Shown piece by piece: positions 16,645 through 20,100 of a stretch of 64,000 bases of DNA. The notes under the pieces were generated by a model that made no database searches, was not told where the DNA came from, and saw only the letters and a program-made list of their open reading frames with translations. Both the position numbers and the translations under genes were made by a program. Within the stretch, counting starts at the first letter, position 1. The number at the start of each line of letters is the position of its first letter. The DNA is from Longimicrobiales bacterium (lineage in GTDB: Bacteria; Gemmatimonadota; Gemmatimonadetes; Longimicrobiales; Gaopeijiaceae): assembly GCA_965219445.1 (NCBI GenBank), contig CBDCNQ010000002.1:448001-512000 (forward strand). Direction: 5' to 3'.

Positions 16645-16867
16645 GCCCGAGTCAGGATATTCGCAGCGGACGGTTAAGCGGGGGTTCCGAGTCGATGGCT
16701 GCAGCTGAACTCAGCAGCGACTGACCAAAATTGTTGTCTGTAGAATATTACGTGTTTCCCCCACCTGACGTAGAATTGCACGGACCCAATCAGAGGAGGC
16801 GTTAGTCAGTGAAGTACTTCACTACGGGAGAAGCCTTGGAGGTTGGGTCAATAGGTGTGTAAATGTT

Positions 16868-18112
16868 TCAGGCGGCGTTTTTCCGCTGTTGGGTTGAGAC
16901 GGGCTTTCCGTCTTCGAACTTTCTTCCTTCAAATACGTCCTTGAGGAGGTGAGGAGCGTCGAGCCTTCTGAAGCGCTTCTCCGCCACCAAGAGCAGCTTC
17001 CAGATCAGCGCCGTAGCGCTCTCGACCCGCTTGAAGCGCTTCGCCGCCGTTGTCCTGAGCCGTACTGCGGCAAAGGGGCTCTCGACCACGTTCGTCGTGC
17101 GTAGATGCTTCCAGTGGTCCTCGGGGAAGTCGTAGAACGCCACCATCCGCTCCCAGTCGTCCTCGAGTACATCCACCGCCTTCGGATACCACGGTCTGTA
17201 GCGCCTGGCGAACGCCTCACGGGCCTTCAGCGCCTCGGACCGCCTCGGTGCGTAGACCACGGTCCTGAGAAGGTCCTTCGCCTCGCTCTGCTCCCGCTGA
17301 GGCAGCCGGTCCAGCACGTTCCTCATCTTGTGGTTCCAGCACCGTTGCTCGCCCGCCTCAGGCCATACCTGCCGTACTGCGCCCCAGATCGCCGCGTTGC
17401 CGTCCGCCATCAAAAGCCGGGGCGCCTCGATGCCGCGTGCCTTCAGATCCCGCAACACCTCGGACCAGGACTCGACCGACTCTCGGTAGCCCGATCTCAG
17501 GGCCAACACCTCCTTCGTACCATCTCGCATCGCACCGAGAACCACCAGCAGCGCTGCCTTGTCCCGCTCGAGCCCCGCCTTCACGTAGATCCCGTCCGCC
17601 CAGACGTAGACGACCTCACGGTCGGCCAGCGAGCGCTTCGACCATTCCTCGAATTTCCTTGTCCATCCCGCCCGCAGCCGCCAAATCGAAGACTTCGACA
17701 ACGGGGCCCCCTCGCCCAGCAGGCCCCGCATCGCCAGCTCGAAGTCTCCCTCCGCCAGCCCGTGCAGATACAGCTCCGGAAGCAGAGCACCCACCTCCTT
17801 CGTCCGTCGTGCGAACAACGGCAACACCCGACTCTCGAACCGCTCCTCAATGCCTCGAACCCGGGGCCGTCGGAGCATGATCGTGCCCGAGCTCATCGCC
17901 AGCCGCCGAGCCTTGCCGTAGCCGTTGCGGTAGCCTGGCGCCGGGTCTACGACCGTCTTCCGCTCCGACTTCTCCCGGCCGAGCAACTCCGTCACTTCCT
18001 CCTCCAGAATCCGCTGGACCATCTCCTGGGCCTTCTCACGAACCAGCGCTTCCAAGCACTCCCACGTCGGCGTGCTGGACTCACTCTCGGGTCCCACCAT
18101 ATTCTTCCTCAC
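16868..18112 (-). CDS. IS256-family (Mutator-like DDE) transposase
   Basis: YRNGY, VWADGIY, GYRES, ADG, QRCWNHKMRN, LRTTNVVES motifs. Confidence 0.95.
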   Translation of the reverse strand: MRKNMVGPESESSTPTWECLEALVREKAQEMVQRILEEEVTELLGREKSERKTVVDPAPGYRNGYGKARRLAMSSGTIMLRRPRVRGIEERFESRVLPLFARRTKEVGALLPELYLHGLAEGDFELAMRGLLGEGAPLSKSSIWRLRAGWTRKFEEWSKRSLADREVVYVWADGIYVKAGLERDKAALLVVLGAMRDGTKEVLALRSGYRESVESWSEVLRDLKARGIEAPRLLMADGNAAIWGAVRQVWPEAGEQRCWNHKMRNVLDRLPQREQSEAKDLLRTVVYAPRRSEALKAREAFARRYRPWYPKAVDVLEDDWERMVAFYDFPEDHWKHLRTTNVVESPFAAVRLRTTAAKRFKRVESATALIWKLLLVAEKRFRRLDAPHLLKDVFEGRKFEDGKPVSTQQRKNAA

Positions 18113-18394
18113 GAGGCATCGTTCCTTTCCCCCGGGCGCTCACCCGGGATTCGCTGGTTAACTTCTTACTACCTAGCGGAAAGGTACGTCGCCTCTTTTT
18201 TTACACACCCTTCTATGGGGCTGGCGGTCAAGACGCACCTTCCCCACGCGCCGTCGGCTCATTTTTTGACCGTCGGCGTCCGCATGGTTTGGATTGCCCG
18301 GTCGACGACTCAGGGTGGGGAGGGGTGCGCTCGCAGGGTCCGCATCGCAGTCCGGAAGACGTTCACAGCCGTCGCGTTCTCCGCTCTGGAGCGG

Positions 18395-18521
18395 GAACCA
18401 TCCTTCTATCTGGGACTCTGTGGCCCATCGCTTCGTTCGGCTCTTCCAGGGGTGCATAGCCTTTGAGTGGGGGCTTGGGCTCTCTGCCCCGGCCCACGGT
18501 GTGTATGGATGCTGTCCCCTG
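18395..18521 (-). ncRNA. Putative bridge/seek RNA core (target-binding loop plus donor-binding loop)
   Basis: Two stem/internal-loop/stem units; loop segments UACACACC and UCAAAGG match the target, AUAGAAGG matches the donor; true RNA ends unknown. Confidence 0.8.
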
Positions 18522-18598: not shown

Positions 18599-19654
18599 TT
18601 ACTCCGTCGCTTCCAGTCTCTTGGGGTCGTACGCTTCGCCCGTGCGCCACACCGCTAGCACGATCGAGGCGAGCTGACGCGCGATCGTCAGCTTCGCCAG
18701 ATTCGGCTTCGTGCCCCCCTCCAGGAGTCGCTCGTAGTGGCGGTACAAGGGCTCGTCCTCGGCCCGACCGATCACCGTCGTCGCTGCGCCCTTGAACACA
18801 CGCTTCAGCGTGTGGTTGAAGTTCCGATTCAGCCCCCGCGTCTGCTGTACCGGTTCCCTTACCCACCGCCCACCCGGACCCCGCACCCAGTCCGACGAGC
18901 TCCGCATCACGACGCCCAGTCCGCAGTACGCCCAGAACCTGCTCCGGCTCTGGAACCGGTACGGCGTCACCACCACCGGCAGGAGCTCCGCCGTCCGGAT
19001 CGGACCCAGACCCGGGCACGTCTTCAGCACATGCCACTCTCGATGCTTGCGTGCTTCCGCCAGCAACGCCTTCTCGGCCTTCGCCCTCAATGCCACGAGT
19101 GCGTCGTGCTCCTCGTACAGCAACCCGGCCGTCGTCCTGCTCGCTTCCGGCAGCTTGGCCAACCACTCCTCCCGGTCGCGCTTTAAGTAGACCGAGCGCC
19201 CCGCGCCGTAGGCCACTCCTCTCGAGCGCAGCACGCTCTTGAGCCGGTTCTTCACCCGCACCGTGTCGCCGACCAAGAAGTCGTAGCTCTTCGCCCGTTC
19301 CCCCAGCCGCCTGAACTGGCCCCGGTTCTTGTAGACCGTCGTCTCCAGTGATCCGATCCGCAGCTTCTCCGCCAGGGCAAACGCGTCCAGCTTGTCGGTC
19401 TTCGGGCCCCGGCTCTTGCCGACCCCCGCCACCGTCAGCTCCTCCACGTGCGGCTTCAGCACCTCGTACAGCCACCCCGACAGCGTCCCTTCTTCCAGGC
19501 ACAAGTGCCGGTTCCTCGGAATCCCTCGCAGCACCTCGATCAGCGCCCGCGCGTTCGTTTCCACCACCTGCGAGCCCAAGCGCTTGCCGCTGGGGCCTAC
19601 AATCCCCAGCGTGCAGCTCGACGCGTGTGCGTCGAGTCCGATATATCTCTCCAT
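18599..19654 (-). CDS. IS110-family DEDD recombinase/transposase
   Basis: YIGLDAH, LEEG, KTDKLDA, PGLGPIRTA, YCGL..RSSS, IARQLA; GAGGAG RBS before ATG 19654. Confidence 0.95.
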   Translation of the reverse strand: MERYIGLDAHASSCTLGIVGPSGKRLGSQVVETNARALIEVLRGIPRNRHLCLEEGTLSGWLYEVLKPHVEELTVAGVGKSRGPKTDKLDAFALAEKLRIGSLETTVYKNRGQFRRLGERAKSYDFLVGDTVRVKNRLKSVLRSRGVAYGAGRSVYLKRDREEWLAKLPEASRTTAGLLYEEHDALVALRAKAEKALLAEARKHREWHVLKTCPGLGPIRTAELLPVVVTPYRFQSRSRFWAYCGLGVVMRSSSDWVRGPGGRWVREPVQQTRGLNRNFNHTLKRVFKGAATTVIGRAEDEPLYRHYERLLEGGTKPNLAKLTIARQLASIVLAVWRTGEAYDPKRLEATE

Positions 19655-20100
19655 CGGCGTTCTCCTCTTGGATAGGTGGGTTGCTTCCTTGCGCGAACAA
19701 TGATGAACGCGCACCCGTTCCCGGAGGAGAACGCCTCTTCGTCTTCGGGCTGCTTAGCTGCTGATCGGTACCGGTAGCCGTCGCCATGCCCCTATGATGC
19801 CTTTGATCCTAGCTCCAAACAGTGCCACGTATCGAACAAAATAGGGTCTCATGAGACCTCCTCGGTTGAGCGCTACGCGCTTGATTGTGTCTGTGTGTAA
19901 TACGAGCGGAGAGACCTGCCGTCAACCGAAGGGGACGGCCCTGGGGTGCCTCGGCTCGCTCATCGAGTGCCGAACTCGGACAACGGCCCCTGAAATTCTG
20001 ACCCTCGCCGGGTTCGGCTTGACGGCCTCTTTCCCCGCTCGCATATCCAGCCGAGGGCCTTATATTTATGGCCCCTCACCCTTCTCTCCGAGGAGCTCCT

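Follow-up and report, generated by a model that had tools for sequence, protein, structure and literature searches.

A predicted donor-binding loop with a conserved left-guide mismatch in an IS1111-type element lodged in an IS256-family terminal repeat

Element and insertion site

The window, that is, the whole stretch of 64,000 nucleotides of Longimicrobiales DNA analysed here, contains an IS110-family element inserted in the terminal repeat of an IS256-family element. The gene, repeats and targets are located as follows.

16839..18211, minus strand: host IS256-family element with its terminal repeat interrupted (transposase ORF 16868-18112)
18203..18209, plus strand: left target ACACACC, within the IS256-family terminal inverted repeat
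18217..18226, plus strand: sub-terminal inverted repeat, 3' arm, the inner 5 nt of which covary
18599..19654, minus strand: IS110-family DEDD recombinase of 351 aa, from domain matches and the alignment of relatives
19782..19792, plus strand: sub-terminal inverted repeat, 5' arm, with one extra base; the arms covary
19803..19815, plus strand: right target TTGAT and the outer rest of the split IS256 terminal repeat

The recombinase scores above the cut-offs of both PF01548 and PF02371 (DEDD RuvC-like and Transposase_20 domains), and its match to NF033542 (E 2.8e-32, 112 bits) lies below that model's cut-off of 140. A weak yet colinear match to IS621 (E 4.6e-5) covers the catalytic DEDD and serine region, and residues D8, E54, D87, D90 and S253 are invariant in 19 aligned relatives. 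The nearest named match is ISGdi15, at 24% identity. Among annotated plasmid proteins even the nearest reach just 23-27% identity to the recombinase, and four of these distant plasmid elements, compared with the RNA profile of the family, gave no match. The non-coding ends measure about 390 nt at the 3' side of the gene and about 150 nt at the 5' side, and in 61 elements the inner 5 nt of the inverted-repeat arms are paired in 240 of 305 cells, against a shuffle mean of 160 and maximum of 193. Long non-coding 3' regions and sub-terminal inverted repeats of 7-17 bp are described as marks of the IS1111 group (PMC11208160 section 12; PMC11187229), and by its 3' end and covarying repeats the present element bears the marks of an IS1111-type IS110 element.

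Near-full copies of the element number 22 in the genome, with 23 left and 21 right junctions at the identical base of the IS256-family terminal repeat, and each of the 24 matched bridge-RNA copies has the same pair of donor guides. Among the IS256 terminal repeats of the genome no perfect empty site remains, and none was found in a second genome (G001), where an empty target was sought as a direct test of the crossover. Close relatives occur in Longimicrobiales assemblies, and remoter ones in other Gemmatimonadota, Myxococcota and Acidobacteriota.

Several copies and sites depart from the common pattern. Four unoccupied IS256 ends (G000 C4:1221669, C4:199276, C5:483701 and C5:267950) keep the left target and CT, and have TC, TCT, CT or T in place of the TT of the intact site; these variants are all contained in TCT, the end of the element itself, and adjoin the predicted cut, so the four ends may be scars of imprecise excision or escape mutants. 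The left target itself differs in two further unoccupied ends. In a sibling that is 95% identical (L017) the target guides have changed and the 5' end lies in the other terminal repeat of this IS256 family. Parts of the element also occur without a transposase gene, namely an orphan 5' end made of the left donor and CT followed by unrelated DNA (G000 C2:661546-661605) and an orphan, slightly decayed donor-binding loop (G000 C5:1023334-1023423). At one-ended junctions (G000 C5:1612738, C4:1171667, L013 and L199) the 3' end joins the element's own interior or non-target DNA at short homology, with duplication of the bridge RNA in L199, and these junctions resemble half-match products. The IS256 composite of the window (16839, 19815) and an inverted copy about 45 kb away (G000 C2:419859, C2:416886) have apparently swapped their flanking duplications, which suggests an inversion between the two composites. 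Finally, an unrelated IS110 element of 26% identity (L204, CP031753.1) directly adjoins an IS256 gene, seemingly within the IS256 end, and holds a copy of its 5' flank sequence in its 3' region.

Relatives compared

The relatives parsed came from 78 genome loci and 80 metagenome loci. From 159 records 141 were kept, after 13 near-identical copies (94% identity or more) and exact duplicates had been dropped, and each count below refers to the subset of relatives in which both compared parts were readable. Counts of the left donor guide rest on 67 elements: 59 whose ends were anchored only on the target guide and the repeat motif, and 8 added by eye, among them one (L056) with a one-base junction deletion, for which the register of its sister L061 was adopted. 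Counts at P5 were first made with patterns that favoured A in the guide and T in the donor; the alignment and the ends anchored on the target guide gave the same result.

Donor-binding loop

The stretch 18395..18443, in the 3' end of the element, probably serves as the donor-binding loop of a bridge RNA like that of IS621, judging by covariation and layout; a search of Rfam gave no relevant family. Positions P1-P7 are those of the left donor, P8-P9 those of the core and P10-P14 those of the right donor.

18395..18443, minus strand: donor-binding loop of the predicted bridge RNA (covariation in 61 distinct rows; IS621-template layout)
18443-18439 with 18399-18395, minus strand: outer stem of the loop, from covariation
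18426-18423 with 18416-18413, minus strand: inner stem of the loop with A18417 bulged, from covariation
18430..18436, minus strand: left donor guide ACGAAGC, P1-P7 (P2 at 18435, P5 at 18432)
18401..18409, minus strand: right donor guide AUAGA (18409-18405), core-pairing AG (18404-18403) and handshake GA (18402-18401)
18496..18505, minus strand: left target guide, in which ACACACC (18504-18498) equals the flank 18203-18209
18459..18467, minus strand: right target guide CUCAA, core AG and handshake GC, the last complementary to donor P6-P7
18212..18216, plus strand: right donor TCTAT at the 3' end of the element, by sequence match
18210..18211, plus strand: core CT of the 3' junction, probably derived from the target
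19794..19802, plus strand: left donor ATGATGC and core CT at the 5' end of the element

The original prediction was that this loop reads the junction of the circularized element, and the right guide bears it out. As had been noticed, 18402-18409 reads CCTTCTAT on the plus strand, identical to 18209-18216, so that the RNA segment AUAGAAGG (18409-18402) is complementary to the element end, a match with a chance expectation of 0.005 in the 3' non-coding region; it comprises the five right-donor bases, the two core bases and the first handshake base. Across relatives the right guide tracks the element end. It is perfect (7/7) in 76 of 85, one of the misses (L155) being a parsing error, and on a tree of 79 elements 14 guide changes at P10-P14 were each matched by a donor change, none being left unmatched. 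Independent pairs were too few for sign tests on single columns; the co-change on the tree establishes the loop as donor-reading.

The stems fared unequally. The predicted outer stem GAGCC/GGUUC covaries and is paired in 93.1% of cells. For the inner stem the proposed UGGG/CCCA pairing (70.1% paired) gives way to GGGC/GUCC with A18417 bulged, which is paired in 99.6%; over the outer and the revised inner stem together, 96% of cells are paired in the 62-loop alignment, with 41 double changes.

On the left side the match is imperfect, as had been reported: ACGAAGC (18436-18430, minus strand) agrees with ATGATGC (19794-19800) at 5/7, with mismatches at position 2 (guide 18435, donor 19795) and position 5 (guide 18432, donor 19798). 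The observation that both left guides end in CG where the DNA has CC also holds (target guide 18498-18497, donor guide 18430-18429), and the two bases that follow the left donor guide opposite the core, G18429 and A18428, are not complementary to it.

Core and crossover

The core had been placed within CCTT, which stands, and possibly at CC, which does not: it is CT, at P8-P9. The two ends of an element share P7 in 43, P8 in 47, P9 in 59 and P10 in 6 of 61 relatives; since P7 and P10 vary and P8-P9 are shared, the core is CT, of which the T alone is nearly invariant. A core of CC at P7-P8 is hardly credible. The copy in the window does have CC at both ends, but over 97 elements the flanking P7 base is C in 66, G in 13, A in 10 and T in 8, the nearly invariant T9 is shared in 59/61, and no more than CT is shared in the sister copies L015, L017 and L022. 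The G that follows each left guide is no signal of the core, for the letter opposite P8 in the donor guide varies (G 52, A 26, C 25, T 6 and a gap in 3 of 112 aligned RNAs) and the left target guide pairs in several registers.

The right guides follow the core closely. The core read by the right target guide equals that of the 5' junction in 62/62, and the core read by the right donor guide equals that of the 3' junction at P8 in 79/85. In 14 elements the two right guides differ; there the 5' junction is TT in 14/14 and the 3' junction CT in 12/14, and most of the left target guides of these elements spell CT. Section 12 of PMC11208158 describes, for IS621, top-strand cuts between P9 and P10 and a final pairing of each right guide with the core that comes in. 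The relatives with variant cores accord with top-strand cleavage following the T of the CT core, and by analogy the cuts would fall between 18211 and 18212 and between 19802 and 19803. A crossover to the left of the core, with the core moving with the right half, was considered and is disfavoured, the 5'-junction core following its own guide in 62/62 and the 3'-junction core in 79/85. As a pattern in the sequences, the handshake of the target loop pairs donor P6 in 56/62 and target P6 in 24/88, and the handshake of the donor loop pairs donor P6 in 0/59; these letters fit the same crossover direction as the core-variant relatives.

The target loop was compared in the same way. Its right guide matches the flank in 47-57 of 62 elements, depending on the position. 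Its left guide matches at 6/7 or better in 41/81 (null mean 2.6), and the good matches fall in three registers relative to the core (16, 16 and 7 of 41). It matches P8 in 20/41, and on the donor side the left guide leaves the core unpaired. At off-target sites (G000 C2:338315; L022) the left target guide of the window (18496-18505) seems to pair in a different register.

Six distant relatives with 39-52% identity (L179, L180, L183, L184, L195 and L200) are placed after CTAAC-type flanks, several of them with a GT core. These flanks may resemble integron attC inverse cores.

Left guide mismatch across relatives

The left donor guide is perfect in none of the 67 elements; 56 match at 5/7, 7 at 6/7 and 4 at 4/7. 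By position, P1 to P7 match in 60, 21, 56, 67, 3, 65 and 66 of 67, so the mismatch sits at P2 and P5. The two positions behave differently on the tree. At P2 the guide changes 21 times and the donor 11 times, more than at any other donor position, and P2 would be a loosely read position. At P5 the donor is T in 67/67 and never changes, and the guide is A in 64/67 and changes twice, both times to U. In the alignment of 112 RNAs P5 is A in 106, U in 3 and a gap in 3; the three natural elements with U belong to two lineages and show no compensating change. The more distant L183 and L184 repeat the pattern, with A at P5 and a 5/7 match. At P5 the target guide agrees with its target in 52/55, in pairs preselected for a match of at least 5/7, which makes the mismatch donor-specific.

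Some joint changes of left guide and donor were seen: at P3 to A/A in L103, L111, L136 and the L060 clade and to T/T in L157, at P6 in L061, and at P7 in L184. Uncorrected, guide and donor match at P3 in 53/60 against 37.5 when shuffled; after correction for kinship, left guide/donor covariation is not significant (P3 p 0.5, P1 p 1) in tree-aware pair tests, which are underpowered.

Among the papers listed in literature searches, no title or abstract describes a conserved mismatch of the left donor guide; figures (PMC11208160 Extended Data Fig. 10c, which gives guides and donors of three IS1111 elements), bioRxiv supplements and most subscription papers lie outside that scope and may already show such mismatches.

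Junction promoter

Joining of the ends would bring two predicted promoter hexamers together, so that the gene strand reads TTGACC, 17 bp, CATCAT.

18226..18231, minus strand: predicted -35 hexamer TTGACC, 17 bp from CATCAT after end joining
19799-19794, minus strand: predicted -10 hexamer CATCAT, with 19798 at the -11 position

No promoter was predicted when the linear element was scanned, which is what one would expect while the ends are unjoined, and TTGAC is present in 68 of 97 right ends, which were located with an end finder that weighted TTG. The circle junction was found neither in the genome assembly nor in the contigs of runs X1, X2, X3 and X20, contigs being apt to drop rare forms, and a single RNA run covered only part of the gene and is silent on the bridge RNA.

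The -11 A is the most important base of a -10 box. Donor P5 corresponds to this base in the predicted promoter and is kept in 67/67; P1, the -7 T, is kept in 61/67. The suggestion that promoter function may constrain the donor holds in part: donor P5 never changes on the tree, as the suggestion would have it, but donor P2 changes 11 times and guide P5 only twice. That both mismatches lie in the box is a weak argument: the -10 hexamer covers six of the seven left-donor positions, and two mismatches would both fall there by chance 71% of the time.

Why guide P5 stays A

By analogy with IS621, from which strand geometry, cut positions and handshake function are taken, the loop would read the joined ends with its right guide exact on the 3' end and its left guide at 5/7 on the 5' end, and would place the top-strand cut immediately behind the CT core. 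The 22 near-full copies of the element imply that this mismatched system has transposed repeatedly. We consider it somewhat probable that the P5 mismatch is held by a constraint from RNA-loop structure or protein contact, together with a tolerated weak pairing. The mismatch would then be frozen from both sides. On the DNA side the donor would have to keep the -11 A of the circle-junction promoter; on the RNA side the A would be kept for loop structure or a protein contact, at a GAA/GAA centre made of purines alone and facing an invariant G. The loop is symmetric, with left P3-P5 (GAA) facing the GAA of the right guide, and guide P5 faces the invariant G in 89/91 loops. In 84 of 91 folds the guide is most open when P5 is A, compared with U, but the gain is small (unpaired 0.76 against 0.65); of all bases A generically pairs least, and the direct U-G pair has a probability of only 0.019. 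Weak left pairing could be tolerated if the donor is held through the perfect right guide, the handshake bases and the sub-terminal repeats. We also considered that a corrected guide might mispair with the GCAU stem of the target loop, and rejected this, the alternative helix having a probability of 0.00 in the window and a mean of 0.03-0.04 over 89 relatives.

The absence of any perfect left guide in 67 elements looks more like selection on affinity than tolerance. The left guide may instead be deliberately kept below full complementarity, a possibility that we take seriously and yet doubt. Such a brake would act against second-strand cutting, and so in favour of copy-out, or against recombination between donors or occlusion of the promoter. 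In IS621 the bottom strand of the donor is cut between 9* and 10*, of which 10* is the partner of P5, as given in section 12 of PMC11208158; by that analogy the A-A mismatch lies at a base predicted to be linked to the recombinase on cleavage of the left-donor bottom strand, and the same base is the -11 base of the promoter. A brake would also accord with the recurrence of 5/7 and A at P5 in the distant L183 and L184, with the one mismatch retained by all three U5 elements, and with an apparent trade-off at P2: where P2 is matched (21 elements) another of P1, P3, P4, P6 and P7 is mismatched in 17, and where it is mismatched (46 elements) in 4. That trade-off, however, rests on 6 independent pairs (3.1 in the same direction, 0 in the opposite, p 0.25), and the 52/55 at P5 of the target guide, which makes the mismatch specific to the donor, comes from the preselected pairs. 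Copy-out as such requires no mismatch, since it is reported for IS621 (10.64898/2026.08.31.748434) and CazIS110 (10.1101/2025.10.25.684509) in accounts that, as far as they go, do not invoke one.

A donor pinned by the -10 box, with a guide that has simply decayed by drift, is improbable. The TTGAC-17-CATCAT arrangement formed at the junction, the constancy of donor P5 and P1 and the 21 changes of guide P2 all accord with it, but drift would have randomised guide P5, which is A in 106/112 RNAs, and it is donor P2 that changes most. A promoter constraint explains why the donor DNA stays; it does not account for the guide remaining A, as the RNA is free to mutate toward a match. We give very little weight to the left strand being a scaffold rather than a guide, with the left end read by protein at the sub-terminal repeat and by the handshake of the target loop. 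The non-significant tree-aware covariation would suit a scaffold, donor P6 = A follows the handshake letter and not the left guide in L122 and L176, and a short seekRNA with no donor loop moved ISEc11, according to PMC11187229; against this stand the joint changes at P3, P6 and P7, the uncorrected excess of matches at P3, and a left-guide register that is the same as in IS621. We keep to the structural or protein-contact constraint with tolerated weak pairing as the most likely explanation of the P5 mismatch.

The most far-reaching interpretation, which we put forward tentatively and regard as unlikely, is of a widespread IS1111-type family whose guide RNA is deliberately mismatched to the element's own end at the -11 A of the circle promoter, neighbour of the second-strand cut, so that a single base brakes donor cleavage, copy-out and self-transcription with left pairing held at about 5/7.

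Comparison with known systems

The sequence comparisons make it a well-supported reading that the donor loop is of a known kind of system, with a CT core and a family-wide fixed left mismatch, which may be a built-in limit on the element's grip on its own ends. Rules for the design of bridge RNAs come mostly from IS621 and IS622, with fully complementary guides and donor mismatches poorly tolerated, and the present family, with a left donor guide that is never perfect, has reached more than 20 copies per genome. It offers natural controls in its U5 variants, its TT and GT cores and its floating target register, and it bears on whether donor-guide strength governs the balance of excision and insertion or strand bias, a point at issue between cut-out and copy-out models. 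It also supplies a donor-loop reading for an IS1111-type element, a group in which donor recognition is less worked out.

IS621 (PMC11208160, PMC11208158, PMC13626964; PDB 8WT6-9), as these sources describe it, has a simple internal donor loop like the present one. The register of the left guide, seven bases followed by core, A and UGG in the template of PMC11208160 supplement 7, is shared, as is the order of right guide, core, 2-nt handshake and UGGU. Further likenesses are a CT core with the T most conserved, a junction promoter (here predicted) and the catalytic DEDD and serine residues. The present RNA differs in lying 3' of the gene, with the donor read on the strand opposite the gene, and the element has sub-terminal repeats of about 10 bp and a right guide without the 2-nt bulge. 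The left guide of IS621 pairs throughout (A123-C130), whereas the present one is mismatched at P2 and P5, and donor mismatches are described as poorly tolerated in IS621 (PMC11208158 section 8; PMC11208160). Donor P7 here is C, which IS621 disfavours; the register of the left target guide floats by 0-2 nt; and the core is paired by the right guides and not by all four guides, a departure from IS621 rather than from bridge function.

With ISEc11, ISKpn4 and ISPa11, IS1111-group elements with a 3' seekRNA (PMC11187229; PMC11208160 section 12), the element shares, on the descriptions given there, a long 3' non-coding end, sub-terminal inverted repeats, a predicted joined-end promoter and a fixed target. 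Many IS1111 RNAs are drawn with their donor-binding bases in a multiloop, whereas the present family has a simple loop of the IS621 type. Its insertion into the terminal inverted repeat of another mobile element recalls IS4321 and IS5075, also described as of the IS1111 group, for which the hosts are Tn21-family transposons and not, as here, an IS256-family element.
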